A stretch of DNA of 48,527 nt. Origin: an uncultured Anaerolineales bacterium. GTDB taxonomy: Bacteria; Chloroflexota; Anaerolineae; B4-G1; SLSP01. Location of the stretch: positions 1-48,527 of the forward strand of contig CAZYYC010000002.1 in NCBI GenBank assembly GCA_964650935.1, written 5' to 3'. Under the pieces are notes generated by a model, which searched no databases, had not been told where the DNA came from, and saw nothing but the letters and a program-made list of their open reading frames with translations. Shown in pieces: positions 8,145 to 25,714 of the stretch (the stretch's first letter is position 1; each line of letters opens with the position of its first letter). The position numbers and the translations under genes were made by a program.

Positions 8145-8660
8145 GTGAAGATGAAGACGCTGTTGATCTTGCGGCACGGTAAGTCGAGCTGGAAAGAGGC
8201 GGGGCTGGCCGATCATGAGCGCCCACTGAAGGGACGTGGAGAGCGTGATGCGGTTGAGGTGGGACGGCGGCTCGCGGAGCTGGGGCTGGTGCCCGAGCTG
8301 GTTGTGAGCTCGACGGCACGACGAGCGCGGGCGACGGCGATGCTGGCAGCACGGGCGAGCGGATGCTCGCAGGAGGTCGTGCCGGCGCGCGAACTCTATG
8401 CGGCAAGTGCACAGGCGGTGATCTGTGTCATCAGCACGGTGCCGGCGGGCTTTGAGCGTGTGATGGTGGTCGGGCACAATCCGGGTCTGGAAGAGGTACT
8501 GGAGGTGCTGACGGGAGAGGCTCGCCGGCTGCCGACGGCATGCGTCGCGTGCGTCGGGCTGCCGGTCGATACGTGGTCGGAGGTGCAGCCGGGGATTGAG
8601 GGACGCCTGTTGTGGGTCTGGCGGCCCGCCGATCAGGGTGGCGAGGCGGGGATGAGGTAG
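8145..8660 (+). CDS. Histidine phosphatase superfamily protein, SixA-like phosphohistidine phosphatase
   Basis: LILRHGKS (RHG catalytic motif) and VVGHNPG (second catalytic His). The size of about 170 aa fits SixA. GGAGGTG Shine-Dalgarno lies before the ATG. Confidence 0.8.
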   Translation: MKMKTLLILRHGKSSWKEAGLADHERPLKGRGERDAVEVGRRLAELGLVPELVVSSTARRARATAMLAARASGCSQEVVPARELYAASAQAVICVISTVPAGFERVMVVGHNPGLEEVLEVLTGEARRLPTACVACVGLPVDTWSEVQPGIEGRLLWVWRPADQGGEAGMR

Positions 8661-10168
8661 GGTCCGGCGGCAAGGGCCTGCCAATGGCCGTAGGCGTTCA
8701 GGTTGCCATAGGAGAAGAGCGCGTGGCCCTGAGCGCCGGCCTCGCGGGCCGTCCGGATGCGCCAAGCGATAGCGTCGAAGTCCTCGGTGACGCCGATACC
8801 GGGATAGACCGGATGCCCCTGGCTGTCGTCGAGGAAATCGTGCATCAGGGCTTGCCAGTTGTCGGGTTGGTCGGCATAGCTGCCGTAGAGCATCGGGACG
8901 ATAGCGTCAAGCGCGCCGGTCACGAGCCAGCCTTTGGAGTCCTGGTAGTAGCGGGTGAGTCCATCGGTGTAGGATGGCCAGACGGCAGCGGAGAGGAGAG
9001 TACGCTCCTGTGACTTCCCCATCACAGACATGCTTGAACGATCTCCTGTGTCGACGTGTGAGAGGGTGGTGTAGATCCTGCGGACTAGGCCGGTGATGCG
9101 CTCCTGCTGCCATTGGGCGCGCTGGGCCGTCGGATCGGTGCCGGCGGCGGCATTGCTGAAGGGATCGTAGGAGTAGTCGGGCCCGGCGTAGCGGACGAGG
9201 TCGAGATGGATGCCGTCGACGGCGTAACGCTCGGCGATGTCGGTGACGACGGAGAGAACGTGATCGTTGACCAGGTCGACGCCGGGACTGGCCCACAGGT
9301 AGTTGCCCTCGCTCGGGGCCATCGGCACGGGTGGGGAGCCGGCGGTGTACTGACGCCAGGTGTAGCCAAGGGCATGTTCGCCTGGATGGGCCTCGTAATG
9401 AGGTCCATAGGTGAAGCGATCGAACATCTGCGGCGGATCGGTGGCGGGAGGGAAGAGGTCGCCGTAACCGGCGGGCGGGGACTGCCAGGCGGGGTAGACG
9501 TTGACGTAGGCGTGGACCTCAAGGCCGGCAGCGTGCCCGCGCTCGATCATATAGGCGAGCGGATCCCAACCGGGGTCGACGCCGAGCGTGGTGGAGACAG
9601 GACCGGCGGTGAGGCGGGCGGCCCAGGGTTCCAGATCGGAGGCGTAGTAGGCGTCTCCGGCGGCACGGATCTGGAAGAAGATAGTGTTGAGGCCGGCGGA
9701 GGCGATGTTGGTGACGAGGGTGTCGACGTCCTCGGGTCGGGGCGTGCGCTCGAGGGTGGTCCAGTCGAAGCGGGTGACCCAGACGGCGCGGAGCTCGGTG
9801 ATGGGGACCGGGGCGGAGGTGATGAGGGGGAGATAGGCACGTGGCGCGAGGTCCTCCCCTTCCAGCTCACCCACGGTGGTTGGGAGAGCCGGCGACGAAG
9901 ACGCCGGACCGGCGGAGGGCAGGATCGTGCTTGGGGTCGCCGGCGCAGCATGCAGGAGCTGCCAGGTGTCGGCGCGGCCCAGGGAGGCAGCGACGGTATC
10001 GAAGTCGACGGCGGTGGTGGGCGCGGGCGGTGGCGTGAGGAGGCAGAGTAGCATAAGCAGGGCGATGAGGAGCGGGCGGGTGCCGTGGACGGTTCTTACG
10101 TCTTGCTGTCCTCCGCCACAGCATAGGGGGAGGCTCACACGATCCTGGGTCCCCCGTGGCTTGAGCAT
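8633..10168 (-). CDS. Exported glycoside-hydrolase-like family 10 (GHL10 / DUF187, YngK-like) protein
   Basis: N-terminal hydrophobic anchor/signal (PLLIALLMLLCLL) followed by a Pro/Ala/Ser/Thr linker. TIM-barrel-like blocks follow: RAVWVTRFDW, NTIFFQIRAAGDAYYASDLEPWA, AAGLEVHAYVNVY, DGIHLDLVRY. The 3' end overlaps the convergent SixA-like gene by 28 nt. Confidence 0.7.
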   Translation of the reverse strand: MLKPRGTQDRVSLPLCCGGGQQDVRTVHGTRPLLIALLMLLCLLTPPPAPTTAVDFDTVAASLGRADTWQLLHAAPATPSTILPSAGPASSSPALPTTVGELEGEDLAPRAYLPLITSAPVPITELRAVWVTRFDWTTLERTPRPEDVDTLVTNIASAGLNTIFFQIRAAGDAYYASDLEPWAARLTAGPVSTTLGVDPGWDPLAYMIERGHAAGLEVHAYVNVYPAWQSPPAGYGDLFPPATDPPQMFDRFTYGPHYEAHPGEHALGYTWRQYTAGSPPVPMAPSEGNYLWASPGVDLVNDHVLSVVTDIAERYAVDGIHLDLVRYAGPDYSYDPFSNAAAGTDPTAQRAQWQQERITGLVRRIYTTLSHVDTGDRSSMSVMGKSQERTLLSAAVWPSYTDGLTRYYQDSKGWLVTGALDAIVPMLYGSYADQPDNWQALMHDFLDDSQGHPVYPGIGVTEDFDAIAWRIRTAREAGAQGHALFSYGNLNAYGHWQALAAGPYLIPASPP

Positions 10169-10303: not shown

Positions 10304-12499
10304 CTAGTTGCCCAGCTCGAATGTACGGGTAGCGCGAGCCCGTAGGTGCAGCGAGGTGGTGGTGCCGTCGTCGTAGACAAGGCGCAGATCGCGGTCGGCA
10401 CCGGTCGTATCGGTCAGGACAAGGGTCGTGCCGTCGAGTGTGACGGTGACGCTGTCGATGCCGAAGGCGAGGCCGCGTGGTCGATCGATGTAGACGTCGC
10501 CGAAGTGGTCATAGATGCGGTTGCGCGCCTCGGCAGCGGCGCCGTTGCCCCAGTCATAGATGGTGAAGCTGCCGATCCCGCCGCCCTCGGGCGTGGTGTA
10601 GCCGGTGTGTCCGTAGTTCTCCATCGTGAAGCCGTAATCCTCGGGCCCAAAGAAGGGCCAGACCTTCTCCCACAGGGCCTTAGCCTCGGGATTCTGCGGG
10701 CAGTACATCATGACGAAGGCGGACTTTAGGGCTGCAATGCCGCGTTCGAAGAGGTGGGGATCCCCGGTCTCGCGGTAGTAGGCGAGGAAGAGCTCGGCGA
10801 AAAGACACTGACGAGAGTCGTTCCACTCACCGTCAAAGTTCATGACGCCGAAGCCGCCGAGGGCGGGGATGTAGATAAAGGGCGGCTGCCAGGTCTGTTG
10901 GGTCATGGAGAGCTCGTCGAGCGTGCGGCGACCCCACCTGAGGTAGCGTTCGTCACCGGTGACGCGGTAGGTCTCGAGCAGGGCCTCGGCAGTCCAAAAC
11001 ATCGAGAAGTTGCACTGCTTGTACATCCCGTTGCGGGGGATGCGGTGTCCGAGATACGTTTCCTTGCCGAAGCTGCAGCACGACCAGTAGGTCTCGAAGT
11101 CCTCCCACCGACCGTTGGGGACGATCTCGATAAGGACGGCATCCATTGCGCGCAGCGCGGCTTCACGATAGCGGGCATCGCCGGTGAGCTCGGCGAGTTT
11201 GAGTAGGAAAGTGACACTCATGCTGGTCTCGGGAGACTCGGCAAGCACGTCGGCAGGGGCGAGGGTGTCGGGATGGAGCCAGGCGGGGAAGAAGCCCTTG
11301 TCATCCTGGAGGGTGAGGAGTTTGTCAGCGTAGGTGCTGACGTAGGTGAGCAGGTCGGCATCGGGATCGAGCTCCTCGTACCAGCGGAGCATGAGCAGGG
11401 CGGTCCAGCTGGCATCAAGGATGTGGTACCAGGCATCGGTAATGCCACGCTCGCGGGGACTTCGATTGGAGTTGGTCCAGTAGCCGGTCTCCCAGCCGAG
11501 AGAACGCTGGATGTCCTCGCCATCGATCGTCACGGTGGTCATCTCGGTGCGGTAGACGCCGGGGAAGATGCCCTCCTTGAAGGGCGCGGCGAGGGCGAAG
11601 GCCTTGGTCAGATCGGCGCGCCGGCGCAGGTCGGTGTCACCGGTGCGGCGGGCATAGCGGAAGAGGCCCGAGGCGCCGCGGAGCGAGGAGAACCAGGCCT
11701 GATTCCAGATGGAGAGGAACTCGCGCAGGGTCGTGTGGCCGGGATAGTTGGGCGACTCGGTGACGTTGACGATGAAGGCAGGGGCGCCGACGGTCTGCCC
11801 GTCGAGCTCGAACTCCTGCCAGACGGCGTCCTCCCATGTGTCAAAGGCCCACCGATAGACGTGCTCGACATAGCGGTCGAGGGGCACCTTCAGGGGCTCG
11901 CCCTGGTTGTAGAGGGGCCGGGCGTAGCGCTGCCAGAGGAAGTGGGCCACGCGATCCCAGGGGTTGCGCGGCGTCGCTGTGTCGCGGTAGGCAAGGACGT
12001 AGAAACCAAGCTCGATCAGCCCGGGCTGGAGTGTCATGCCGGTGACCTTCTCGTACTCAACGTGCTGCGAGATGCGGGTAGCGCTCAAGCCGATCCACCA
12101 ACGCTTCTCAGGGGCGTCGACATCCAAGAACCAGGGATTGTCGGGTAGGGCGCCGCAGATATCGAGATCGGGCACGAGGATCAGCGTGCGATCGCGGTCA
12201 GCTGCGATGAGAGCAGGGGAACGGAAGACGTGCTGGGCGATGCAGGTGCCCTCACGCGGCGCAAGATGGGGCGCCCACCAGAAATCGGGGTCGATGGCGA
12301 GATGGAACGCGATGGCGAGCTCATCCTGGGTGAGCGGGGCGTCTAGGCGCCAGGCAACGCGGACGCGCTGCCAGCCATCGCCGACGTCGGATATGTCGAC
12401 GGTGGGAGATGAGGCGCCAAGGGTTGGGACTGCAAATGTGGCCCAGGTCTCGTCGCCGATGCGCAGAGCTGCGTTGCGGTCAGATAGGTCAATGTCCAT
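10304..12499 (-). CDS. Uncharacterised cytoplasmic 731-aa protein, putative alpha/alpha-toroid (six-hairpin-like) carbohydrate-active enzyme; paralog of 12504-14801
   Basis: AAGGAGG Shine-Dalgarno 9 nt before ATG 12499. No signal peptide. Repeated helical-hairpin signatures: TGDARYREAALRAMDAV, TGDERYLRWGRRTLDEL, TGDPHLFERGIAALKSAF. Blocks shared with the neighbour are listed in the findings. It carries an extra C-terminal beta-rich tail. The family assignment is inference only. Confidence 0.6.
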   Translation of the reverse strand: MDIDLSDRNAALRIGDETWATFAVPTLGASSPTVDISDVGDGWQRVRVAWRLDAPLTQDELAIAFHLAIDPDFWWAPHLAPREGTCIAQHVFRSPALIAADRDRTLILVPDLDICGALPDNPWFLDVDAPEKRWWIGLSATRISQHVEYEKVTGMTLQPGLIELGFYVLAYRDTATPRNPWDRVAHFLWQRYARPLYNQGEPLKVPLDRYVEHVYRWAFDTWEDAVWQEFELDGQTVGAPAFIVNVTESPNYPGHTTLREFLSIWNQAWFSSLRGASGLFRYARRTGDTDLRRRADLTKAFALAAPFKEGIFPGVYRTEMTTVTIDGEDIQRSLGWETGYWTNSNRSPRERGITDAWYHILDASWTALLMLRWYEELDPDADLLTYVSTYADKLLTLQDDKGFFPAWLHPDTLAPADVLAESPETSMSVTFLLKLAELTGDARYREAALRAMDAVLIEIVPNGRWEDFETYWSCCSFGKETYLGHRIPRNGMYKQCNFSMFWTAEALLETYRVTGDERYLRWGRRTLDELSMTQQTWQPPFIYIPALGGFGVMNFDGEWNDSRQCLFAELFLAYYRETGDPHLFERGIAALKSAFVMMYCPQNPEAKALWEKVWPFFGPEDYGFTMENYGHTGYTTPEGGGIGSFTIYDWGNGAAAEARNRIYDHFGDVYIDRPRGLAFGIDSVTVTLDGTTLVLTDTTGADRDLRLVYDDGTTTSLHLRARATRTFELGN

Positions 12500-12503
12500 G
12501 GTG

Positions 12504-14801
12504 TTAGGCCTCCTTGGTAGGTAGACGTGGGCTCATGTGCTGCGAAGCGCCCCCGGATCTCAGGAAATAGGCGGCGGTGGCTAAGGCGCTGCCGGTTCCC
12601 CAATCGAAGCCGCTGACCCCGCACAGGCCGTCGTGACCGCCATGAGCGTGGTTCTCAGCAGCAAGGCCCTGGAGTGCGCGATGCCAACCGGTGGGATAGA
12701 GGGTGCTGAGGACAGGTAGGTAGGTGGTTGTGAATGCTGCATAGAGCGCGGCTTGGGCGCGTTCAAGGTGTTCGACGTCGCCCAGCAGGTTGTAGAGGTC
12801 CAGATGGGTGTCGGCGAACTGCGCCTGACGTGCGTCGCTCCACTCCCCATCCGTGTTCATGACCCCGTAGCCGCCAAAGGCGGCGAAGTTCAGGAAGGGC
12901 GGATCCCAGACCTGCTGGTAGAGCGTGAGGCGATCCATCACCCGGCGGGAAAGCGTGAGATGGCGGGGATCGCCGGTGACCTCGTGGAGGGCCAGGAGCC
13001 CGGCTGCCGCGGTGTGCATACACAGTGTGTTCTGGGGCCATTGACCGGAGCGGTGGTCGTAGGCGTCGAGGGGCTTGGGGGAGCAGGAGTAGTAGAGCTC
13101 AAAGTCGATCCAACGGGCCTGGGCGATGGCCCAGCTTTCGAGCCACGCTACAGAGCGAACTGCGGCACTGAGGAAGCGCTCGCGATCCGGATCGTCCGGC
13201 GGAAGAGCGCGGGCCAACTCCGCGAGGAACAGCAGCGAGGTAGCGTCCTCGGCGCTGTTAACGAAGCGCTCCTCGGGCCAGAGACGGAGGAGGCCGTGGG
13301 CGATGTAGCGGTCGCCCGGATCGTGCGCCTCAATGTCGGCCAGCTGCGCGGCATGATCCACGTGCGTGACCGGCGCGAAGGTGTGCGCATCGACGTAGGC
13401 GGGGAAGCTTCCCTTCTCGTCTTGCAGGGAGAGAAGGCCCTGGGCATAGGTGCGGGCGAAATCCAGTGATCGCGCATCCGGTTCAAGGTCACGCTGCCAG
13501 CGGAGGAGGTGATAGGCGGTCCAGGACATATCGAAGAGATGGTAGATGCCTAGGCCACCACCCTGTGGGTGGCTATGAACCCAGCGGTGGGGTGTCGACA
13601 CGTCGCCGAAGACGAAGACGGTGGGAAAGAGGCCGCGTTCCTGAGGCGCGGCGAGGACGAGGTCGCGCGTAGCGCGGGCGCGATCGACCCAATCGGATGT
13701 CCCGGTCTCCTTGCCCCAGACATAGAGTCCATAGGCCGAGCGAAGCTGGTTGAACCAGGTGCAGAACCAGACGTCATTGCGGTAGGCGCGATGGATGCGG
13801 AGGGCGCCGACACGCCGTCCATCGAGTGTGGTCTCGTCCCACAACTGGTCGAGGGCGCGAGGGTAGATCTGCCGGGCGAGTTCGGGAAAGGTGGCGGGCA
13901 TGGGGTGCGCAGCCGCGGCAGAACGCTTGCCGGCGTCGGTCCACAGTTTGCGGTTGGCCGCGTCGAGGGAAGCCCCTGGCGGCGCATCGGCGGCGGCGAA
14001 GAGATGATAGGTGAAGTGCAGGGGGCGTGTGGGCGGGAGCTCGCCGGGAAGATCCGGGCCATCGGGGGCGGGATGGGCGGCGTAGTAGACGTGGCCGCGG
14101 ACGTGGTGGGCACGAAGGCCGACGCGGAAGGTGGGCACACCATCGTCACGCAGCAGCGCCATACAACCGGGTAGTGACTGTAGTTTGCCGAGGGTGCCGG
14201 TGTCGTAGATGAGGGCTGCGGCGCGATCGCCGCTCTGGGCGGTAAGGGCCGGCGACCGGAGCACGTGTCGCCCGATCACGTCGTGGGGCTCGGGTGTGAG
14301 GACGGGCGAGAAGACCTCATCAGGCGGCGACGCCTCGTCCGGCGCACCGGACACGTGCCGGCCGACGAAGCGCCAAGCGGCCTCGAACCAGTCGACCGTG
14401 GTATCCGGTCGGGTGCGGTCGGCGGCGAGCACCTCGCTGACGCGAATCCAGGAGCTGTCATCGTCCAGGCGTAGGGTCAGGGCAAACGTAGTAGGGCCTG
14501 CGCTGCCGCGGATGGTCAGCTGGGCCGCCCCGGCGAGGCCCGTCTCGAGCTCAAGACATGGCATATCGGGATGCTCGGCGCGCAGGGCCGCGTTGGCGGG
14601 GTTGGTCGCGTTGGTGCCGCTACGCTCCAGGATGGAGACGAAGCCGTGGCCTGCCTGCCAAGCTGAGATGCGCAGGTGGAGCGCGCCGGCAACTACGGAG
14701 GCTTCGAGTTGGATGCGTTCGTTGTGGATCGTGACGTGATTGGGGGTCTGAACACTGTGCATGGTGTGACCTTTCGTCGTGGCGTGTGCCGAAGCGATCA
14801 C
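12504..14801 (-). CDS. Uncharacterised cytoplasmic ~750-aa protein, putative alpha/alpha-toroid carbohydrate-active enzyme; paralog of 10304-12499
   Basis: Homology to the downstream gene is clear by eye: IYHLFDMSWTAYHLLRW, LQDEKGSFPAY, RWIDFELYYSC, GGYGVMNTDGEWSDARQ, FDWGTG. The stop lies 4 nt before the next start. Start is either GTG 14801 or ATG 14762. Confidence 0.6.
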   Translation of the reverse strand: MIASAHATTKGHTMHSVQTPNHVTIHNERIQLEASVVAGALHLRISAWQAGHGFVSILERSGTNATNPANAALRAEHPDMPCLELETGLAGAAQLTIRGSAGPTTFALTLRLDDDSSWIRVSEVLAADRTRPDTTVDWFEAAWRFVGRHVSGAPDEASPPDEVFSPVLTPEPHDVIGRHVLRSPALTAQSGDRAAALIYDTGTLGKLQSLPGCMALLRDDGVPTFRVGLRAHHVRGHVYYAAHPAPDGPDLPGELPPTRPLHFTYHLFAAADAPPGASLDAANRKLWTDAGKRSAAAAHPMPATFPELARQIYPRALDQLWDETTLDGRRVGALRIHRAYRNDVWFCTWFNQLRSAYGLYVWGKETGTSDWVDRARATRDLVLAAPQERGLFPTVFVFGDVSTPHRWVHSHPQGGGLGIYHLFDMSWTAYHLLRWQRDLEPDARSLDFARTYAQGLLSLQDEKGSFPAYVDAHTFAPVTHVDHAAQLADIEAHDPGDRYIAHGLLRLWPEERFVNSAEDATSLLFLAELARALPPDDPDRERFLSAAVRSVAWLESWAIAQARWIDFELYYSCSPKPLDAYDHRSGQWPQNTLCMHTAAAGLLALHEVTGDPRHLTLSRRVMDRLTLYQQVWDPPFLNFAAFGGYGVMNTDGEWSDARQAQFADTHLDLYNLLGDVEHLERAQAALYAAFTTTYLPVLSTLYPTGWHRALQGLAAENHAHGGHDGLCGVSGFDWGTGSALATAAYFLRSGGASQHMSPRLPTKEA

Positions 14802-14914: not shown

Positions 14915-16189
14915 CTAGAACCTCACGAGGTGGAAGTCGGTCTGGCGACCGTGGATGGGATAACAGCCGTCGCGCGTGAAGGCGACATCCTGTTCCATCG
15001 AGAAGGTGACCTCCTGTCCATCCCACTCCGGGACGGGTGCGGTGATCGAGAGCTCCATGGTGAACGTCTGGTTGGTCTCGAGCGTGACGTCACCGCGGCC
15101 CTCGCACCTCTCCTGTTCCCAGGGCAGGCCGATGAGGGGGCCCGGCTCATGGAGGAAAAAGCCGAGACTATGGGAATAGACCTTGGGCTTGGGTATGCCG
15201 GCGGCGTGGGCCCGCGTGAGAATGGTTTCCAGGAGTTGGTTGCCGGTCAGACCGGCTTGAAAGGAGGCCATAAAGATGTCCTGAAGGCGGTTGCCCTCAG
15301 CCATCAGGTGCCGAAGTCCCGTGGGCGCACTCCGTTCGCCCGGGCGGAGGATGTAGGCCCACTCCTGATGATCGCTATTGAGACGGAGGTATTTGATCCC
15401 GACATCCGAATGGATCATATCGCCGGGACGAATGACCTGGTCATCGGCGCCATACCGAGTGCGCATGGCGTCGCTACGGACCAAGTTGAAGAAGGGCTTG
15501 AAGGCCAGGTCAAGGCCGAGCTCCGCCGCCGACTGCCAGTAAGCCCACTCAAGATCGCGAGTCGTCGTAACGCCGGGGACGATGGTCGCGGTGCTGTAGC
15601 AGGCGCCCAGCAGGTGGTGGGCCACGTTGACGACGTGATGAAAGGCGGTCAGCTCACGGTCGGTGAGGCAGGCAAAGAAACGGGTGATGAGAGGTTCGGC
15701 GGAGACGAGGCGTTCGGCGAAGGACGGCGGTAGGGTGGCGAGAAGGCGATCATAAAGGGTGTGAGTGAGGCCGCCCGCAGCCCACTGCGTCGTCCCGATG
15801 TTGATGCCGATGCGCTTGGGGTTGCGGGCTTCAATGCACTGGCGCAGTAGGGGCCACTGTTCCTCGTGATGGCGCCCGGTCCAGGGTCGCTCATAGAGCC
15901 CCTGGGTGTCGGTCATCGAGAGGTTCAGGCGTTCAACACCCAGATCAGGTCCGCGGTCATAGAAGACCAGGACTTGGAGGATGGGGCACCACGTGTTGAT
16001 GGGGATGAGGTGGGTGAAGACGGGATCGAGGTTGTCCTCCTGGCAGATGATGAGCCACATGTCGAGGCCGCACTCACGCATCAGAGAAGGGAGGAGGTCA
16101 GTGAGCCGTTCGTCAAGGAGGTCATACGTAAGGGCCGCGCGCTCACGCATGGTCAGGATTCGAGGCATCGGTGATACCGAGCTAGGCAT
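14915..16189 (-). CDS. M24-family metallohydrolase (Xaa-Pro peptidase / creatinase fold)
   Basis: AGGAGG 8 nt before ATG 16189. The pita-bread metal ligand pattern looks intact: HSD...(11 aa)...NSD, YSHSLG, TMELS, SMEQD. The N-terminal creatinase-like domain begins MRERAALTYDLLDERL... Confidence 0.75.
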   Translation of the reverse strand: MPSSVSPMPRILTMRERAALTYDLLDERLTDLLPSLMRECGLDMWLIICQEDNLDPVFTHLIPINTWCPILQVLVFYDRGPDLGVERLNLSMTDTQGLYERPWTGRHHEEQWPLLRQCIEARNPKRIGINIGTTQWAAGGLTHTLYDRLLATLPPSFAERLVSAEPLITRFFACLTDRELTAFHHVVNVAHHLLGACYSTATIVPGVTTTRDLEWAYWQSAAELGLDLAFKPFFNLVRSDAMRTRYGADDQVIRPGDMIHSDVGIKYLRLNSDHQEWAYILRPGERSAPTGLRHLMAEGNRLQDIFMASFQAGLTGNQLLETILTRAHAAGIPKPKVYSHSLGFFLHEPGPLIGLPWEQERCEGRGDVTLETNQTFTMELSITAPVPEWDGQEVTFSMEQDVAFTRDGCYPIHGRQTDFHLVRF

Positions 16190-16402: not shown

Positions 16403-17290
16403 CTATCCTTTGATGCCGGTGAGGGCAATGCCCTCAACAATGAGGCGCTGGGCGAAGAAGTAGAGGATGATAGGCGGGAGGAGGATGACGACGGAGGCTG
16501 CCATCAGGTAACCCCATTGCGTGCTGTACATGCCGCGGAAGGTGGCGAGTCCGAGAGAAAGGTTGAACTTGTTGGCATCGTTCAGGATGATGAGGGGCCA
16601 GAGGAAGTCATTCCAGCCGTTGATGACGGAGAAGACGGTGACGGTAGCGAGAGCGGGCTTGGAGAGCGGCATGATGATGCGCCACCAGATGCCGATGTAG
16701 CCACATCCATCGATCTTGGCAGCATCATCGAGTTCTCGGGGAATGCCCATATAGAACTGGCGTAAGAGAAAGATGTAGAAGGCGCTGCCGAAGAAGGCGG
16801 GGACGAGGAGTGGGAGATAGGTGTTGATCCAGTTCAGCTCCTTGTAGAGGATGAACTGGGGGACCATCGTGACCTGTCCCGGCAACATCATGGTCGAGAG
16901 CAGAACCATAAACAGGAGGTTCTTCCCGGGAAAGTTGAGGCGGGCGAAGCCGTAGACTACCCAGGAGCTGGAGAGGACGATGCCGAAGGTGCCGACGGTG
17001 GTGAGGAAGAGGGTGTTCTTGAGCAGCTGCCAGAACTTCATCAGGTCGAGCGCTTCGGGATAGTTCTGCCAGAGGATCGGATTCGGTATCCACTGAGGTG
17101 GATAGATCCAGATGCGCGCCTCGACTTTGAGCGAGGAGGAGAGCATCCAGAAGAAGGGTAGGGAGAAGATGATGCCAAGGGCGGTGAGAAAGAAGTACCA
17201 GAGAACCTTGGAGAGCGTCTTCTGGACGCGGTACCAACTGAAGTGCCGAGTGCGCGAAAGTGTGCTGTGTTGTATGTCTTGGGCCGCCAT
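16403..17290 (-). CDS. Carbohydrate ABC transporter permease (MalG-like)
   Basis: 295 aa with 6 TM segments. The EAA-loop region reads PRELDDAAKIDGCGYIGIWWRIIMPLSKPAL. Confidence 0.9.
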   Translation of the reverse strand: MAAQDIQHSTLSRTRHFSWYRVQKTLSKVLWYFFLTALGIIFSLPFFWMLSSSLKVEARIWIYPPQWIPNPILWQNYPEALDLMKFWQLLKNTLFLTTVGTFGIVLSSSWVVYGFARLNFPGKNLLFMVLLSTMMLPGQVTMVPQFILYKELNWINTYLPLLVPAFFGSAFYIFLLRQFYMGIPRELDDAAKIDGCGYIGIWWRIIMPLSKPALATVTVFSVINGWNDFLWPLIILNDANKFNLSLGLATFRGMYSTQWGYLMAASVVILLPPIILYFFAQRLIVEGIALTGIKG

Positions 17291-17302
17291 TTGTTTCCCC
17301 CC

Positions 17303-18235
17303 TTACCTCATCATTTCGCCTTCGTAGTAGACCCACTTCTGTGACAGGCGGAACTGGATCAGGGTGAGTAAGATCACGATCACAAAAAGGACCCAGGCCA
17401 TAGCAGCTGCGTAGCCCATGCGCAGGAGGCGGAACGCCTGACGGAAGAGATAGAGTACGTAGAAGAGGGTGGAGTTCTGGGGCGCTCCGCCCGTCATCAC
17501 ATAGGCGGATGTGAAGACCTGGAAGGAGCCGATGAGGCCCATGACGAGGTTGAAGAAGATGACCGGGGTCATCATAGGAATCGTGACATGGCGGAACTTC
17601 TGCCAGGTGTTAGCCCCATCGATGACAGCCGCCTCATAGAGTGACGTCGGCACGCCTTGAAGGCCCGCGAGGAAAATCACGGCGGTGCCGCCGACACCCC
17701 ATAGACTCATCAGGATGAAGGCAGGCTTCGACCAGGTCGGATCAACCAGCCAGCCCGGGCCAGGAAGGCCGATGGAGCGGAGGAGGTAGTTGATGAGCCC
17801 AAACTGAGGGTTGAAGAGCCAGATCCATAGCAGGGAGACGGCGACGCCGGAGGTGACGGCGGGGAGGTAGAAGACGGTCCGGTAGATGTTCATGCCGGGA
17901 AGCTTGACGTTGAGCAGGAGCGCGAGCAGGAAGGCGAAGATGATGCCCAGGGGCACGCTGAAGATGACGTAATAGACGGTGTTGTAGAGCGAGAGGAGGA
18001 AGAGCCGATCGCGGGTGAAGAGCTCAATGTAGTTGCTCAGGCCAACAAACTTCGGTGGGGCAAAGAAGTCGTAGTCGGAGAAGCTGAGGCCGATGGAGGC
18101 GATAACGGGCCCGAGGGTGAAGACGAGGAAGCCGATGACCCATGGGGCGACGAAAATGTAGCCCCAGAGTGCCTCACGGTCGAACTTGAGTTTCCCCTTA
18201 CCTGAGAACTGCTTAAAGGTCTGAGGTGAGAGCAT
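17303..18235 (-). CDS. Carbohydrate ABC transporter permease (MalF-like)
   Basis: 310 aa. The EAA-loop region reads PTSLYEAAVIDGANTWQKFRHVTIPMMTPVI. GGAGGT Shine-Dalgarno lies 8 nt upstream of the start. Confidence 0.9.
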   Translation of the reverse strand: MLSPQTFKQFSGKGKLKFDREALWGYIFVAPWVIGFLVFTLGPVIASIGLSFSDYDFFAPPKFVGLSNYIELFTRDRLFLLSLYNTVYYVIFSVPLGIIFAFLLALLLNVKLPGMNIYRTVFYLPAVTSGVAVSLLWIWLFNPQFGLINYLLRSIGLPGPGWLVDPTWSKPAFILMSLWGVGGTAVIFLAGLQGVPTSLYEAAVIDGANTWQKFRHVTIPMMTPVIFFNLVMGLIGSFQVFTSAYVMTGGAPQNSTLFYVLYLFRQAFRLLRMGYAAAMAWVLFVIVILLTLIQFRLSQKWVYYEGEMMR

Positions 18236-18260
18236 GCGGATGACCTCCGAACGGTAAAAA

Positions 18261-18316
18261 GCCGTCTCGGCAATGAGCCTTTGTCCTAGAGCCGAGGTTC
18301 ATTGCCGAGACAGACG
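18261..18316 (-). promoter_or_regulatory. Intercistronic hairpin between the binding-protein gene and the permease genes
   Basis: ccgtctcggcaatga (18261-18275) pairs with tcattgccgagac(aga c)gg (18298-18316). That gives 13 contiguous bp plus 2 more across a bulge, with a 22-nt loop. Confidence 0.45.
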
Positions 18317-18330
18317 GTAATCAGGAGAGC

Positions 18331-19692
18331 CTACTCGGCATCTTCTCTGGCCAGAGCGTCCGCGATCTTGGGAGCTGCATCGCCCAGAGCCTCTTCAGGT
18401 GTGCGATCGCCGAAGATAGCTTCGTCGAAGGCCTGCCCGAGGGCGTCGGTGATGAGCGGGTACTGGGAGCTGCGCGGGCGAGCGCGTCCGGATTCCATCG
18501 CCTCGAGGAAGACGGCCAACTGCGGGACTTCCTGGAGGCGCTGCTCGGCAATGCTCCGGCGACCGGTGAGTGCGTAGCCGAACTTGGACGTGTGGAGCTG
18601 CCAGGTATCGGTGGTGGTGAAGGCCATGATGGGCAGCGTCTGCTCGAGATGCTGGCCGTCCCGGTTGGCGGAGAAGAGCCATCCACCGACGCCGCTGATG
18701 AACTGACCGTCCGCCGGGCGCGGGAACTTGGCGATGTCCCAACTGAACTCGGGCGGGTTGGTCTCGGTGAGGTTGGCGAGGTCGAAGGCGCCGGTGGCGC
18801 TCATGACGACGACCTGACCATAGAAAGTGCCTTCGGGACCCGCTTCGGCCATACCGGCCTTGGGCCAGATCTTGTGCACGTTGATGATGTCCTTGAGGAA
18901 CTGGATCGCCTCAACAGCGGGCTCAGCGTCGATGGTGACCTCACGAGTTGCCGAGTCGTAGACCTGACCGCCATTCATCCAGATCCAGGGAAGGACCATC
19001 CAGACGGAACCTTCGCCGAGGCAGCACCACTGCTCGAAGGCCCACTGACGGACGGCGTTCCAGTCAAAGGCGGCGTCGTTGGGGTGGTTGCCGTTGATAT
19101 CGTAGGTGAGGGCCTGACCGGTGGTGATGAGCTCATCCCAGGTCTCGGGCGGCTCGACGCCGGCCTCATTCATTTTGTCGACGTTGATACGCAATGCGAT
19201 CGAGTTGGTCTCCAGGACGGTTGCATAGGTCTTGCCGCGGAACTGCATCTCGGCGCGGGCAGGAGGATAGAAGTCATCGAGGATATCCTGCGGGATCACC
19301 GCATCACTCAACTCGGCGGTGAGGCCGCGATTGGCGAACGTCGGGAGGTTAATCCCGTCAACGGCGAAGATATCGGGGAGCGTGCCGCCGGCAGCCGCCG
19401 TGGCGAACTTCTGCTCCCACTCACTGGGGACGCGGGTGAAGAGGAAGTCGGTATCGGGATGGTCAGGCAGGTAGTTCTCAGCCATGAACTCGGTGATCCC
19501 GATGTTGTCCTCGAGGGGATGGGGGGTCCACATCTCGACGGTGACCTTGTCGACAGCCGGCTCACCGACGACCGGCTCGCCGCCGGGCTCCTGTGTAGCA
19601 GGCTGGGTCTGCGCGCCGCAGGCTGACAGTAGTGCAACACCCGCGCCGGCCGAGGCCAGTTTCAGAAAGTTACGACGTGACAGCTTCTCCAT
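18331..19692 (-). CDS. ABC transporter extracellular solute-binding lipoprotein (carbohydrate family 1), Tat-type signal
   Basis: Preferred start is ATG 19692, preceded by AAGGAGG. MEKLSRRNFLKLASAGAGVALLSACGAQ combines a twin-arginine motif with a lipobox (LLSAC). The track ORF extends to 19758 without support. Confidence 0.88.
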   Translation of the reverse strand: MEKLSRRNFLKLASAGAGVALLSACGAQTQPATQEPGGEPVVGEPAVDKVTVEMWTPHPLEDNIGITEFMAENYLPDHPDTDFLFTRVPSEWEQKFATAAAGGTLPDIFAVDGINLPTFANRGLTAELSDAVIPQDILDDFYPPARAEMQFRGKTYATVLETNSIALRINVDKMNEAGVEPPETWDELITTGQALTYDINGNHPNDAAFDWNAVRQWAFEQWCCLGEGSVWMVLPWIWMNGGQVYDSATREVTIDAEPAVEAIQFLKDIINVHKIWPKAGMAEAGPEGTFYGQVVVMSATGAFDLANLTETNPPEFSWDIAKFPRPADGQFISGVGGWLFSANRDGQHLEQTLPIMAFTTTDTWQLHTSKFGYALTGRRSIAEQRLQEVPQLAVFLEAMESGRARPRSSQYPLITDALGQAFDEAIFGDRTPEEALGDAAPKIADALAREDAE

Positions 19693-19761
19693 AACGGATC
19701 CTCCTTGTGGCAAGTGCAGTAATGAAGGAAATGCGCCACCCGGGGCGGCGCGCGACACCTA

Positions 19762-19909: not shown

Positions 19910-21121
19910 ATGGAGAATCCCGACCAACTTGACGATCAGATCCTAGAGGCGCTGACGCATCTCTACGATCCGGATTATGTGCCGCCTGCAGGCCTTGTCG
20001 AACTCGTGGGAGTGTCTCCCGAGGACGGCCCGCTGCCGGTGCAGTCGGCCCTGCTTCATGCGATTCAGGAGCTCGAGCCACGCGGCGTGCTGTCGGACGA
20101 AGCCCATCTCGCGCGCGTCTACGAGGTGCTGCACAGGCGCTTCGTGGCCAAACTAACGCAGGAGAAGACGGCAGAGCTGATGGACATCAGCGTCCGGCAT
20201 CTGAACCGCGTTCAGCGTGAGGCGGTGCACACGCTGGCGCGGCGCCTCTGGGAGCGACGGCGTGATCGGGGCAGGGCCGCAGCCGGAAGCGAGTTGCAGG
20301 CCGGGGATTGGGAGGCGCAGATAGGACGCGAACTGGCGGCGCTACAGGCCCGAGCCCCAGGGGCTGTGGCCGATGTCGGTGAGACGCTGACCGGGGTGTT
20401 GAGTTTCCAGGGTGCCCTGGGCCTGGGTGAGGATCGGGTCGAGGTGGGGTTCGTACAGCCGGACCTGGCGGCGGCTCTGAACGCTTCCGTGCTGCGCCAG
20501 ATCCTGATCACCGCGATCGGGCGTTTCGTGCGGTACCAGGGGGAGCGGGGTCGGGTGACGGTCTTCGCGGGGTTGGAGAATGGTGAGGTGCGCATCACCA
20601 TTGCCGGTGCGGTGGAGACCCGAGCGGATGATGCGGATCTGCGGCGGGCGCTGGTGGGCGACGTGCTGACCCCGACGGGCGTGGGGGTCGAGGTCTCGGT
20701 GGAGGAGGGCGCTGTCTTTGTGACGATCCGAATGCCGTCGGCGGCACAGCGGCTTACGGTGCTCGCGGTTGACGATAATGCGGATATGGGCCACTTCTAC
20801 CGCCGCTGTACGGTGGGGACGCGCTACCAGCTGGTGCACCTAGGTGCCGGAGAAGGGGTATTGGAAGCGGTGCGGGCGATCCAACCGGATGTGATCGTGC
20901 TGGACGTGATGCTTCCGGACGTGGATGGCTGGCAAGTGCTGATGCACCTGCACGAAGACCCGACCACGCGGTCGATCCCGGTGGTGATCTGTACGGTCGT
21001 ACGGGAGGAGGAGCTGGCCCTGTCGTTAGGCGCGTCCGGGTTCCTGGCCAAGCCCGTCCGGCCCCGCGAGTTCATCCAGGCACTAGATCAGGCGCTCCTT
21101 CGGGCTCAAGAAGGAGGGTAG
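19910..21121 (+). CDS. Atypical response regulator: sigma-70 region-4-like HTH, degenerate HATPase-like middle domain, C-terminal receiver
   Basis: HTH: LTQEKTAELMDISVRHLNRVQREAVHTLARRL. The middle domain resembles a kinase catalytic domain (VLRQILITAIGRFVRY...VRITIAG...VFVTIRMP) but I see no Asn or G-box residues. Receiver: LAVDDNADM...VIVLDVMLPDVDGW...VVICTV...FLAKPV. Confidence 0.75.
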   Translation: MENPDQLDDQILEALTHLYDPDYVPPAGLVELVGVSPEDGPLPVQSALLHAIQELEPRGVLSDEAHLARVYEVLHRRFVAKLTQEKTAELMDISVRHLNRVQREAVHTLARRLWERRRDRGRAAAGSELQAGDWEAQIGRELAALQARAPGAVADVGETLTGVLSFQGALGLGEDRVEVGFVQPDLAAALNASVLRQILITAIGRFVRYQGERGRVTVFAGLENGEVRITIAGAVETRADDADLRRALVGDVLTPTGVGVEVSVEEGAVFVTIRMPSAAQRLTVLAVDDNADMGHFYRRCTVGTRYQLVHLGAGEGVLEAVRAIQPDVIVLDVMLPDVDGWQVLMHLHEDPTTRSIPVVICTVVREEELALSLGASGFLAKPVRPREFIQALDQALLRAQEGG

Positions 21122-23279
21122 AGAGCTCTTCCGTGCAGCGCAGGAGACGGCTTAGCGGGAGGCCCTCCCCGATGGTCGCCGCGATGAGGGGGCTCAGGGG
21201 CGGGCGATCCGCCGGGTCCTGGGCGGAGACGAGCAGGGTGGGGACGGTCGGCAACGTAGGATCCGTGCTCAGGGTGGTGAGGAGTCCCCAGCCATCGGTG
21301 CCGGGCATAATGACATCGAGCAGCATCAGGTCAATGGGCTGTGTGCGCAGGTGGCGGAGGGCGGCCTCGGTGCTGCCGGCGGTGGCGATGTCGAGGGTCG
21401 GATCGTGGAGCTGCAGCATACGGGTGAAGAGCTGCAGGACGTCGGGATCGTCATCGACGATGAGAATGTGGCGGGGTGGTGCCGGCGTGAGGTCGAGCGC
21501 AGCGGTGAGGCTGGCGCGCGTGACAGGTTTGACGAGATAGCCGAGGGCACCGGCGTCGGCAGCGCGCTCGAGCGTACGTGGGACGGCACAACCCATGATG
21601 GGCGTGTCGGGAGCGAGGGATTGAAGCTCGCGCATCCGGGGCCAGAGGTTGTCGAGGTCCGTCGTGTTGATGAGAATCGCATGGGCAGGAGCGTGTGCGA
21701 GGGCATCGGCGACCTGCGAGATGTCGTGAGTATGGAGGCATTCGAAGGTGTCCGCGTGTCGCGCGAACCAGGCATGCAGATCTCCCGTGGGGTCGCAGAG
21801 GATGAGGCGGGGAAGGGTAAGACGATCGGAGTAGGAGGCGCGGGAAGCCTGGACAGCCGGTTCACGCCAGACCCAGTCGGGCACAATGGTGTGACCGGGA
21901 CGCGCAAGCGGCGCGATGGGCGGGGAGATCGGTAGTGTGAAGTAGAAAGTTGTGCCGACGCCCAGCTGGCTCTCGAGCCACATACGCCCGCCGTGGAGTT
22001 CGACGAAACGACGGGAGATGGACAGACCGAGACCGCTGCCGCCGCGACCGTGCCAGAGGCGGCCCTGGTCGAAGGGTTCGAAGATCGTCTCGGCGTCCTC
22101 AGGGGCAATGCCGGCGCCGGTGTCCTGGACGCTGATGCGAACCTGCCCGTCCTGATGATGGACCTCAATCCTGATATGGCCATGATCGGTGAAGCGCGCA
22201 GCGTTACTGACGAGGTTGAGGATAACCTGCTGAACACGAGTTCGATCGCAGTAGACGTCGGGAAGGTCGCCGGGCACCTGAACGTGCGCGGCGACTTGTT
22301 TTTTGTCGAGTAGAGGGCGGACGGCAGCGACGCTGGCGTCGATGACGTTGCCGAGGGCCACCCGCTCGCGGTGAAGGGCCAAGCGACCGGACTCGATGCG
22401 GGTGAGATCCAGGACATCGTCGATCATATGGGACAGGTGCTCGCAGTTGCGATGGATCACCTGCAGGTCCTGACGCATGTCCGGGGGCAGGACGACGGCA
22501 TAGATCTCGGGCGACTCGACCATCAGGTCGACCAGGCCGATGATCATGTTGAGCGGGGTGCGAAACTCGTGGCTGACGTTGGCGACGAAGGTCGTTTTGG
22601 CACGTTGGGCTTCCTCGGCGATCTCGCGCAGCGCGGTGGTACGTTGATTGGCGAGGGCGAGCTGCCGGTTGGCGGTAGCGAAGGCCTCCAGGGTCTGTTC
22701 GAGCTGGGCCTGATGGTCGCGCGCCTCCTCAAGAAAGTGCTGTCCGCGATGGAAGTAGTCCTCCACCCAGTCGATGAGTTGATGGACGGGACGATGGGTG
22801 CCGTAGGTGGTGCCGAGTGCAGCCCAGGTGGCAAGGATGGCCAGACTGAGGGTCGGCGCGTCGGCGAGGGTTGGTTGTAGGCGGGGAACGAGGAGGAGGG
22901 TGGCGGTCTGCAACACGGCAACGAGGATAGAGGCCGAGAAGCGGATGAGGGGCGTCGCGAGGGCGACGGGCAGCGCAGCGAGGATAAGGACCTGCGGGAG
23001 ATCCAGGATCAGGGAGGCGGCATAGATCGCTGTAGGTAAGGCGCCCAGAAGGAACCAGCGGCCCAGGCTGGGACGCCAGGCCGTGATCAGCCAGGCGGCG
23101 AGGCCCAGAGGAAGGATCGCGAGGCTGAGGCTCATAGCGCGGTTGACGATCGCCCATTGGCTCGAGGTGAGCTCGGCGATGAAGTAGGGGAGGATGCCCG
23201 CGACGAGCAGGACGGCGATCACCGGACCGGTGGGGATGCGGAGTTCGGCCTCGAAGCCGGGTTGTATATGATTCGACAT
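21072..23279 (-). CDS. Hybrid sensor histidine kinase: about 6 TM, HisKA, HATPase_c, receiver-like domain, then C-terminal receiver
   Basis: AGAGGAG Shine-Dalgarno before ATG 23279. H-box VANVSHEFRTPLN, N-box ILNLVSNAARFT, G1 DTGAGI, G2 GGSGLGLSI. A receiver-like block follows (AILINTTD...GYLVKPV), then a receiver (ILIVDDDPDV...LMLLDVIMPGTDGW...LLVSAQ). Confidence 0.85.
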   Translation of the reverse strand: MSNHIQPGFEAELRIPTGPVIAVLLVAGILPYFIAELTSSQWAIVNRAMSLSLAILPLGLAAWLITAWRPSLGRWFLLGALPTAIYAASLILDLPQVLILAALPVALATPLIRFSASILVAVLQTATLLLVPRLQPTLADAPTLSLAILATWAALGTTYGTHRPVHQLIDWVEDYFHRGQHFLEEARDHQAQLEQTLEAFATANRQLALANQRTTALREIAEEAQRAKTTFVANVSHEFRTPLNMIIGLVDLMVESPEIYAVVLPPDMRQDLQVIHRNCEHLSHMIDDVLDLTRIESGRLALHRERVALGNVIDASVAAVRPLLDKKQVAAHVQVPGDLPDVYCDRTRVQQVILNLVSNAARFTDHGHIRIEVHHQDGQVRISVQDTGAGIAPEDAETIFEPFDQGRLWHGRGGSGLGLSISRRFVELHGGRMWLESQLGVGTTFYFTLPISPPIAPLARPGHTIVPDWVWREPAVQASRASYSDRLTLPRLILCDPTGDLHAWFARHADTFECLHTHDISQVADALAHAPAHAILINTTDLDNLWPRMRELQSLAPDTPIMGCAVPRTLERAADAGALGYLVKPVTRASLTAALDLTPAPPRHILIVDDDPDVLQLFTRMLQLHDPTLDIATAGSTEAALRHLRTQPIDLMLLDVIMPGTDGWGLLTTLSTDPTLPTVPTLLVSAQDPADRPPLSPLIAATIGEGLPLSRLLRCTEELSTLLLEPEGAPDLVPG

Positions 23280-24869: not shown

Positions 24870-24884
24870 GGACTCCTGATGTGA

Positions 24885-25679
24885 TCACAGGGTGGCGTCC
24901 TCGACGAGAGCGACCAGGGCGGCGAGGGCCGCGGGTGCCTGGGTGGGCAGATCGTCCCAGCGCGACTCGATGGAGACGGGGCCATCGTAACCGCCAAGAA
25001 CCAGGGCGTGGAAAAAGGACAGCAGGGCGGGACAGGGCTCGCCCCCCGGCGGAAGGCGGGAGGGGACGGTAGCGATATGAACGTGATGCAGCAAGTGGGC
25101 GTTGGTGACGAGTTCGCCAAAGCTGTCGTTGTCGAGGGCCCAATGGTAGGCGTCGGCAAGGAGGCGAAGGTTGGGATGGTTCACCGCCTTGACGTAGCGG
25201 GCGCACTCACCGATGGAGTTGAGCACGTTGCACTCATCCCGGGCGCGGTTGAGCGGCTCCACGACGACGGTGACGTCTTGGTCTTGAGCCAGGGGGGCGA
25301 TCAGCTTTCCGAACCAGACGAGCTGCTTCCAAGCCGACCCGCGGTCGAAGCCGTCGGGAATCCGGCGAGCGCCACCTGACCCGAAGACGATCGTGCGGAT
25401 GCCGGCAGCCCGGGCGCGAGCGAAGGAAGTCAAGGCATAGGCCTCGAGTGCGGCGGCGTCGATGACCGGGCCCGTGACCTTGAGGGAGGCCGGGAGGAAG
25501 CAGTTGGCGGCAGGGGCAGGGAGCGGCGCAGCCCGGATGGTGGCAAGCGCCGGCTGGAAGGCGTCATCGCCCTCGACTGTCTTGAGATGATTCTGAACGT
25601 GGAGCTCGATGAAGTCAAAGCCGGCGGCCGCCAGCGTGGGTGCCGCTTGAGGATCTGCACAGACTCCGTATCGCATCAT
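24885..25679 (-). CDS. Sugar phosphate isomerase/epimerase family protein (xylose-isomerase-like TIM barrel)
   Basis: 264 aa. MRYGVCAD...AAGFDFIELHV...VVEPLNR...HVHIAT pattern of the AP-endonuclease-2/xylose-isomerase-like TIM fold. AAGGAG Shine-Dalgarno. Confidence 0.75.
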   Translation of the reverse strand: MMRYGVCADPQAAPTLAAAGFDFIELHVQNHLKTVEGDDAFQPALATIRAAPLPAPAANCFLPASLKVTGPVIDAAALEAYALTSFARARAAGIRTIVFGSGGARRIPDGFDRGSAWKQLVWFGKLIAPLAQDQDVTVVVEPLNRARDECNVLNSIGECARYVKAVNHPNLRLLADAYHWALDNDSFGELVTNAHLLHHVHIATVPSRLPPGGEPCPALLSFFHALVLGGYDGPVSIESRWDDLPTQAPAALAALVALVEDATL

Positions 25680-25714
25680 GATCTCCTTATGGGATGGGTG
25701 TGAGCAACAGGGAC

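Follow-up and report, generated by a model that had tools for sequence, protein, structure and literature searches.

We analysed a 48,527-nucleotide window that covers positions 1 to 48,527 of contig CAZYYC010000002.1, from an uncultured Anaerolineales bacterium, and that carries on its minus strand two adjacent paralogous genes, referred to here as gene A (12504..14801; the upstream paralogue) and gene B (10304..12499; the downstream paralogue). The pair belongs to a large unnamed and structurally uncharacterised protein family that occurs repeatedly inside utilisation operons of the D-arabinan type. The family is new at the family level within the well-known six-hairpin carbohydrate-active enzymes (CAZymes), and it does not represent a categorically new system. 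With a probability of roughly 0.55, we favour the reading that both A and B are catalytically competent and cleave glycans in the cytoplasm, with putative hydrolase chemistry and putatively different specificities, and that would act on the same imported oligosaccharide.

Counted from the GTG at 14801, as in the list of open reading frames (ORFs), gene A encodes 765 amino acids. The ATG at 14762, which would yield a protein of 752 amino acids (12504-14762), is the more likely start, because a GAAAGG Shine-Dalgarno sequence lies 7 nt upstream of it and the public gene call P0121 (752 amino acids) begins there. Gene B encodes 731 amino acids. At the junction of the two genes (12500..12515, minus strand), exactly 4 nt (CACC) separate the TAA stop codon of A (12506-12504) from the ATG of B (12499), and a perfect AAGGAGG Shine-Dalgarno sequence (12515-12509) is situated within the last codons of A, 9 nt ahead of the B start, a layout that would fit translational coupling. 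Comparison of A with B by BLASTP revealed 32% identity across 637 amino acids (E=3e-76), which is well beyond chance, and the similarity reaches through the N-terminal beta domain, beginning near residue 68 of B and residue 157 of A. An earlier note on this DNA had described tandem, deeply diverged paralogues that are spaced 4 nt apart, share six sequence blocks, and differ in a Cys-Cys pair of B that is Cys-Ser in A. These observations were borne out: each of the six blocks was found verbatim in the translations and matches columns that are invariant in 51 homologues, and the motifs read SCC in B and SCS in A.

Scans of A and B with Pfam and NCBIfam models returned no match above threshold, and the hints below threshold covered single helices or a partial region of (alpha/alpha)6 families, namely glycoside hydrolase (GH) families GH88, GH127 and GH47 and C5-epimerase. 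The Pfam model closest to B is that of GH88/GH105 (PF07470), with B residues 365-500 aligned to its C-terminal third (E=5e-5; profile positions 205-343 of 352, or about 40%) at a score of 22.9 bits; protein P0002 scored 25.8 bits, and the gathering threshold is 26.6. Some B orthologues bear a precomputed PF07470 label, and no PF07470 match was found in A. Proteins of the A/B family are twice the size of GH88 enzymes, and in the structure of UGL the catalytic Asp residues lie in the N-terminal half, outside the part of PF07470 that aligns to B. Sequence searches of the PDB, whether with single sequences or with a profile, gave no significant match and merely an insignificant fragment of polysaccharide lyase (PL) family PL27.

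Despite this absence of named relatives, the family is large. An exhaustive HMMER search over 1.84 billion cluster representatives identified 708 clusters, defined at 50% identity, with a cut-off of E<=1e-3; a cut-off of E<=1e-30 left 267. A word-indexed search found at least 1464 proteins related to B and only 29 related to A, and from these counts the A-type appears to be the rarer subfamily and B a member of a widespread one. Across phyla, proteins of the B subfamily are 58-76% identical. Our survey of genomes, which included one genome per species, found 313 relatives; the best 80, to which the counts of B-type loci below refer, are 57-75% identical to B and all come from metagenome-assembled genomes (MAGs) of Chloroflexota, Hydrogenedentota, Planctomycetota, Acidobacteriota, Gemmatimonadota, Aminicenantes, Verrucomicrobiota and other phyla. 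A further record in the survey, from an Anaerolineae MAG, is 96% identical to B. The names given to relatives by their sources are all "hypothetical protein", and no description of the family was found in literature on PF28588, GH172/DUF2961 and PL27. PF28588 proved to be the first domain of GH172 and does not correspond to the A/B family. One subfamily of about 1180-1190 amino acids, comprising P0148 (L090 8001-11585) and P0144-P0147, is 34-36% identical to A, has the motif SNA in place of the semi-conserved Cys, and bears about 200 additional C-terminal residues that lack a Pfam match; in locus L090, the P0148 gene comes after an ATP-binding cassette (ABC) importer and near genes for a GH116 enzyme and a FucI-like isomerase.

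We modelled both proteins with AlphaFold2 on alignments that mix the two subfamilies, and the models reached a predicted local distance difference test score of 93.5 and a predicted template modelling (TM) score of 0.94 for B, and 88.5 and 0.91 for A. The B model comprises a short N-terminal beta-sandwich (amino acids 1-172), an (alpha/alpha)6 barrel (about 182-666) and a C-terminal beta domain after the barrel, and the A model comprises a long N-terminal beta-sandwich (1-257) and an (alpha/alpha)6 barrel (about 264-742) with no C-terminal beta domain. Neither protein has a signal peptide. When the models were compared with the PDB using Foldseek, only carbohydrate-active (alpha/alpha)6 proteins were matched (PL27 5NO8, GH52, GH94, GH63, GH76 and AGE epimerases), with more than 150 matches to (alpha/alpha)6 CAZymes at E<=1e-3 but sequence identities of only about 9-10% and whole-chain TM-scores near 0.3. 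The models thus predict that A and B share a six-hairpin toroid fold that has no close characterised or solved relative, and that the family combines a beta-sandwich with an (alpha/alpha)6 barrel and, in part, a C-terminal beta domain, which is the architecture of many six-hairpin glycosidases. The alpha/alpha toroid guessed in the earlier note therefore agrees with both the models and the Foldseek matches, and the helices follow the pattern expected of a six-hairpin barrel. That note had also reported an extra beta-rich tail of about 90 amino acids in B. The tail is present in B and absent from A, but it is shorter than claimed, at about 60 amino acids (10304..10495, minus strand; amino acids 669-731, with model strands at 669-726; 64 residues past the barrel in B versus 16 in A), and it is not extra. 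Most family members resemble B in having 60-100 residues past the barrel, and A-type proteins have about 16; from this distribution, the C-terminal beta domain is the family norm and ancestral, lost by A rather than gained by B. Conversely, about 130-150 residues lie ahead of the conserved P77 position in most members including A, and 76 in B, whose N-terminus is thus unusually short for the family.

Conservation was scored over 108 diverse family representatives, with residues numbered as in B. About 60 columns are invariant across the A-type and B-type subfamilies. The residues Q398, G402, P405, D467, E469, Q534, W537, G548, N554, D556, D561, R563, R586, E627 and H631 are 91-100% conserved, R586 reaching 100%, and W650 (90%) and E558 (88%) fall just under this range. 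Protein A carries all of them, W650 and E558 included; among residues conserved in at least 85% of the family, it deviates at only two (P110 to Tyr and F550 to Tyr), and it retains each conserved Asp, Glu, His and Arg. Two segments of B stand out, the motif W465-E-D467-F-E469-T-Y-W-S473-C474-C475 (11075..11107, minus strand), in which D467 and E469 are 96-98% conserved, and the most conserved loop, Q534-Q-x-W537 ... G548-G-F-G-V-M-N554-F-D556-G-E558-W-N-D561-S-R563-Q (10808..10900, minus strand), which holds candidate catalytic or substrate-binding residues. The conserved residues of B map to long inter-hairpin loops at 459-496, 532-561 and 594-651. We infer from the secondary-structure map that these loops form the active-site face of the barrel, because such loops make the active-site face in (alpha/alpha)6 enzymes. 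The earlier note had singled out acidic and aromatic blocks that A and B share, and the conserved acidic and aromatic residues are indeed gathered in these loops, on a single side of the barrel. The active site on that face would consist of D467-x-E469, Q534, N554-x-D556-x-E558-x-x-D561-x-R563, R586 and E627-N-x-x-H631, and glycoside hydrolysis would be carboxylate-based rather than dependent on Cys and Zn, with D467/E469, D556/E558/D561 and E627 as candidate catalytic residues.

The cysteines follow a different pattern. Cys474, which is common to A and B, is 80% conserved in the family and is elsewhere replaced by Ser, Asn or Ala, and position 475 is Ser in 73 of the 108 members and Cys in 4. 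Within the B clade (n=120), the motif is SCC in 84, SCS in 24 and SCN in 9 proteins; proteins of the A clade have SCS or SCA. No further conserved Cys besides Cys474 was found in the alignment of family members. Judged from these alignments, the Cys-Ser of A is the family norm and Cys-Cys a peculiarity of the B clade, and the interest of the finding does not lie in the Cys-Cys pair.

We also investigated how A and B relate to each other within the family. Out of 97 full-length representatives at 50% identity, B is more similar to 54 than it is to A, and A is more similar to 37 than it is to B. None of the best 80 B-type loci contains a second paralogue, and the tandem order of A followed by B was seen only in the window and in loci L001, L094 and L109. 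The tandem of L001 is 61% (A) and 69% (B) identical to that of the window and keeps the entire operon, and the tandem of L094 is 95-96% identical and keeps the part that includes A, B and the GHL10 gene described below. A-type genes occur without B in L002/L003, L088, L089, L091, L092, L093, L099 and L107; in L089, a 732-amino-acid gene upstream of the A-type gene was considered as a B-type gene and rejected, as BLASTP shows no relation. A recent tandem duplication was likewise rejected, because A and B are not mutual closest relatives and no second copy exists in the 80 B loci. Taken together, A and B come from different old subfamilies, each usually found without the other.

The genes of the window suggest how the two enzymes could be supplied with substrate. 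The order on the minus strand begins with the importer region (16403..19758), of which the first gene (18331-19758) encodes a substrate-binding protein of an ABC importer with a twin-arginine translocation signal and the following two (17303-18235 and 16403-17290) encode permeases, and it continues with an M24-family metallohydrolase-like gene directly upstream of A (14915..16189), A, B, and then a gene for a GHL10 (PF02638) protein (8633..10168), which follows B in the same orientation after a gap of 135 nt and encodes an N-terminal membrane or signal segment. In the mechanism that we propose, A and B would be the last two genes of a co-transcribed and translationally coupled import-and-degrade operon that consists of the genes for the substrate-binding protein, two permeases, the M24-like protein, A and B, and the two enzymes would cleave different linkages of one imported oligosaccharide, either in sequence or as complementary specificities. 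Different linkages are proposed because both proteins keep the full signature, differ in accessory domains and usually occur apart.

To describe the genomic context of the family, we took the ORFs up to 6 kb away from B in each of the 80 loci and clustered them de novo. GH172 (DUF2961) is the most frequent neighbour family, present in 13 loci within 6 kb and in 20 of the 80 within about 10 kb by tblastn, and the GH172 genes are mostly co-directional with B and often directly adjacent to it. A Planctomycetes MAG encodes a protein (P0104; L005/L047 10001-13294) in which a B-type module that is 64% identical to B is fused to a complete two-domain GH172; the fusion gene is flanked by GH127, GH43 and GH28 genes. 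In four Planctomycetota loci, the B-type gene is directly preceded by a GH127-like gene (L045, L042, L052 and L059; Sedimentisphaerales and Phycisphaerae), and in L045 (8054-13476) the order GH127, B, GH172 makes up a three-gene cassette of the furanosidase type. The GH127-like neighbours in these two lineages are secreted, and their E-G-C and C-C zinc motifs are present.

Several loci resemble a known D-arabinan pathway more closely. In L093, genes for LacI, a FucI-like isomerase, a substrate-binding protein, two permeases, an A-type protein that is 50% identical to A, a GH116 and a GH172 follow one another in the same direction. The GH116 protein matches the exo-beta-D-arabinofuranosidase ExoMA2 (8IC6) at E=2e-108, compared with about 1e-14 for beta-glucosidases, and the GH172 protein matches the exo-alpha-D-arabinofuranosidase ExoMA1 (8IC8) at E=8e-125, compared with 2e-39 for alphaFFase1. 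This gene order is repeated in L099, likewise with an A-type protein of about 50% identity, and partial versions are found in L097, L110 and L098. Among B-type loci, L069 has a GH172 gene that begins 45 nt past the B-type gene and matches ExoMA1 at E=3e-135, and L087 (Gemmatimonadota) contains a FucI-like gene, GH172, an ExoMA2-like GH116 (E=7e-116), B, a 395-amino-acid ORF and M24; the relatives in L087 and L069 show 61% identity. D-arabinan is an unusual sugar polymer of mycobacterial cell walls, and L-fucose isomerase is the classical D-arabinose isomerase. In Microbacterium arabinogalactanolyticum, extracellular GH183 endo-arabinanases feed an ABC importer, the intracellular enzymes ExoMA1 (GH172) and ExoMA2 (GH116) finish degradation, and D-arabinose then enters metabolism by way of an isomerase and a kinase (PMC10509167). 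Like that locus, L093, L099 and L087 encode an ExoMA1-like GH172, an ExoMA2-like GH116 and a FucI-like isomerase, and L093 and L099 also share the ABC importer with it. Unlike it, all three loci hold an additional (alpha/alpha)6 family that is unmentioned in the published description of the Microbacterium locus.

Peptidases also recur near the family. M24 genes, found with B-type genes from phyla far apart, occur in the window, L001, L007, L043 (Gemmatimonadota), L061 (Gemmatimonadota) and L087, and other peptidases near B include M19 in L043 and apparently in L087, whose 395-amino-acid ORF matches the M19 dipeptidase of L043, M81 in L041, and S9 on the flanks of B in L004. In L043, the Peptidase_M19 dipeptidase gene sits between B and M24, the position that the 395-amino-acid ORF occupies in L087. 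One possibility raised by these recurrent peptidases is a glycopeptide or cell-wall-fragment substrate. M24 was also considered as a universal partner of B and rejected, as it is present in only 3 of the 80 B loci, plus L001 and L007.

The substrate of A and B is most likely a furanoside-bearing glycan or a glycopeptide fragment. By analogy with the loci above, oligosaccharides that contain D-arabinofuranose, as released from actinobacterial arabinogalactan or lipoarabinomannan, are a tentative choice that we place clearly below even odds. The fullest version of this idea, to which we give about one chance in a few at best, is that the family constitutes a new GH family that acts on D-arabinofuranose glycans (mycobacterial and corynebacterial arabinogalactan, lipoarabinomannan), with A and B of this Chloroflexota lineage jointly providing two linkage or anomer specificities that in other genomes are found alongside GH172 and GH116, and with M24 (elsewhere also M19) enzymes handling the attached peptide. 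Several points weigh against our proposal for A and B. The family has no characterised member, and the chemistry is deduced from the fold and conserved residues only; the link to D-arabinan rests on relatives that are 50-61% identical; GH172 is missing from about 60 of the 80 B-type loci; and the neighbours of B are heterogeneous, including M24, M19, M81 and S9 peptidases, GH127-like genes, sulfatases and URO-D-like genes. Furthermore, tblastn detected no GH172, GH116 or FucI-like gene in the 48.5 kb of the window, whose operon differs from the Microbacterium D-arabinan locus in having M24, A, B and GHL10 instead. The window does share with the Microbacterium system an ABC importer, enzymes without signal peptides and a XylB-type kinase, but these features are generic rather than specific to D-arabinan.

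Other explanations for the pair were weighed against these observations. The earlier note had offered a heteromer or two sequential specificities as alternatives and had suggested that Cys-Cys versus Cys-Ser could mark one active and one auxiliary subunit. A heteromer of a catalytic B, bearing the Cys-Cys pair, and an auxiliary or regulatory A would make sense of the 4-nt spacing and the Shine-Dalgarno sequence inside A, which suggest stoichiometric co-expression, of the tandem arrangement repeated in L001, L094 and L109, and of the complementary domain losses, with A lacking the C-terminal beta domain and B having a short N-terminus. However, Cys-Ser is the norm and Cys-Cys the exception, which does not support a Cys-Cys pair that marks the active subunit. 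Both proteins retain the full set of conserved Asp, Glu, His and Arg residues, and neither therefore looks auxiliary. Moreover, in none of the 80 loci is the B-type gene accompanied by a paralogue, and A-type genes stand without B in the eight contexts named above. We judge an obligate heteromer or an active-plus-auxiliary pair unlikely because the two types commonly occur apart, and of the two alternatives it is separate specificities that we favour. The same note had invoked glycosidase chemistry of the GH127 type. In GH127 enzymes such as the beta-L-arabinofuranosidase HypBA1, a Cys nucleophile lies inside a Zn site of three Cys and one Glu. A reading of A and B as GH127-like retaining glycosidases with a Zn-bound cysteine nucleophile could draw on the (alpha/alpha)6 catalytic domain that GH127 shares with the family, the Cys-Cys dipeptide of B, the GH127-like genes that directly precede B-type genes in the four Planctomycetota loci, and a weak match to the Pfam model DUF1680/PF07944 (GH127) that covers one helix (19.4 bits for B, E=5.6e-4; 11.1 bits for A, E=0.2; cut-off 24.9). 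Alignment of the family with GH127-like neighbour proteins using hhalign, however, gave a probability of 2% over a 36-column generic helix only. Most of the family, A among them, cannot form a Cys3-Glu zinc site, because there is no other conserved Cys, and the shared Cys is itself absent in 20% of members, with a second Cys in only 4 of 108. The hhalign result and the conservation of cysteines effectively refute the GH127 reading at the level of the family, and we regard it as highly improbable for A and B. Remote homology to GH116 and clan GH-O, which had been raised by the GH52 match in Foldseek and the GH116 neighbours, was also rejected at the level of sequence, as hhalign against four GH116 neighbours gave 0.2%, and no GH116 domain was matched by Pfam in A or B. 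If the A/B family is active on arabinofuranosides, it would be independent of GH116 and GH127, because profile homology is lacking (0.2% and 2%, respectively).

The remaining alternatives concern the reaction itself. Overall, the multi-domain architecture of A and B resembles that of GH94 and GH65 phosphorylases and of GH52, GH63 and GH116 glycosidases, many of which, like A and B, are cytoplasmic and act on oligosaccharides imported by ABC transporters, but these enzymes show no sequence homology to the family and have a different set of conserved motifs. Glycoside phosphorylases resembling GH94 or GH65, which would cleave an imported disaccharide with phosphate, are improbable. They would account for the four-part architecture (N-terminal beta-sandwich, linker helices, barrel, C-terminal beta domain) that is similar in the A and B models, for the cytoplasmic location of A and B downstream of an ABC importer, and for GH94 cellobiose phosphorylases being the top Foldseek matches of A and high among those of B; the invariant residues R563, R586 and H631 are possible phosphate ligands. 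Identity to these enzymes is nevertheless about 9-10%, with TM of about 0.3 and no match at the sequence level, and signal peptides or lipoprotein boxes are present in many other members of the family (P0149, P0150, P0116 and the B-types of L043 and L087), which are atypical for phosphorylases. Polysaccharide lyases distantly related to PL27, which would act by beta-elimination on a uronate-containing glycan, are an improbable solution as well. The PL27 L-rhamnose-alpha-1,4-D-glucuronate lyase BACCELL_00875 (5NO8) has a beta-sandwich and (alpha/alpha)6 layout (PMC8377490), in the same order as in B, but it lacks a C-terminal beta domain. Both the sequence search with phmmer (E=0.089 over 39 residues) and the fold search with Foldseek (E=1.7e-9, 10% identity, TM 0.28) give it as the best match of B, and the conserved Arg and His could serve in carboxylate neutralisation and proton abstraction. 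The sequence E-value is insignificant, however, the profile search of the PDB was empty, and no uronate-catabolism genes were noticed in the loci examined, where a pentose isomerase and furanosidases are the recurrent neighbours. The best barrel-only TM-scores (TMt 0.58-0.65) came from epimerases and isomerases of the AGE superfamily, but such enzymes have about 400 amino acids, a single domain and paired catalytic His residues, as opposed to more than 700 amino acids, flanking beta domains and a carboxylate-rich signature in the A/B family; for non-catalytic carbohydrate-binding proteins, the identity of 58-76% across phyla and about 60 invariant positions argue for catalysis instead. We consider both of these very unlikely. 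The reading of A and B as two carboxylate-dependent, glycan-cleaving enzymes with different specificities remains the one that we prefer.

It was not until 2023 that enzymes able to cut D-arabinan came to light (GH183, GH172 and one subfamily of GH116), and they are already in use as tools for analysis and as targets for probes. Another widespread family in operons of the D-arabinan type would be a candidate for a missing specificity. If the D-arabinofuranose proposal is true, the family would constitute a new CAZy family across Chloroflexota, Planctomycetota, Gemmatimonadota, Acidobacteriota and Hydrogenedentota and would be relevant to the recycling of actinobacterial necromass by bacteria in the environment. 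Whatever the substrate, about 700 clusters that have no relative in Pfam, NCBIfam or the PDB and that share a sharply conserved, carboxylate-rich site present a well-defined target for function discovery.

Other genes in the window touch on the supply, regulation and fate of the sugar. The GHL10 protein, which also has a long linker rich in Pro, Ala and Ser, is possibly an extracellular depolymerase that supplies the ABC importer; a GHL10 gene is also conserved behind B in L008 and L094, and L091 has a further one close to its A-like gene. No NCBIfam model matched the M24-family protein, nor did any PDB entry at E<=1e-3; by eye, the protein apparently keeps the usual Asp/Asp/His/Glu/Glu pattern of metal ligands. 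Upstream of the operon are genes for a response regulator (19910-21121, plus strand) and a hybrid histidine kinase (21072-23279, minus strand), which probably regulate the operon and which are kept alongside it in L001. The response regulator has an N-terminal helix-turn-helix resembling sigma-70 region 4 and a C-terminal receiver, and its gene is convergent with that of the histidine kinase, with an overlap of about 50 nt. Directly beyond the histidine kinase gene lie genes for a XylB-type xylulokinase (TIGR01312, 402 bits versus the equivalog cut-off of 380) and two xylose-isomerase-like TIM-barrel proteins (23331-26563, minus strand), which could provide a pentulose route for sugar released by the operon. 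On the contig of P0128, a similar TIM-barrel gene and a GFO/IDH/MocA oxidoreductase gene come after an A-type/GH172 pair. A scan for promoters and terminators gave counts near the shuffled expectation, with one promoter-like site upstream of the gene for the substrate-binding protein.

Variants of the operon are found in related lineages. Relatives from Caldilineaceae and Thermoflexales have the orthologous transporter followed directly by B, without M24 or A. In L105 (9847-10576), and also in L104, L106 and L108, an A-type gene with a large internal deletion lies behind a transporter that is 71-77% identical to that of the window; its N-terminal portion of about 55 amino acids is joined out of frame to a C-terminal portion of about 190 amino acids, and neither M24 nor B is present. 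Its sequence marks this gene as an apparent decayed remnant of the enzyme part of the operon in a related lineage. Elsewhere in the window, the 1598-amino-acid ORF at 42967-47763 (plus strand) lies in the region of highest GC content (about 70%) and overlaps several long ORFs on the minus strand, and it is probably a spurious high-GC reading frame.

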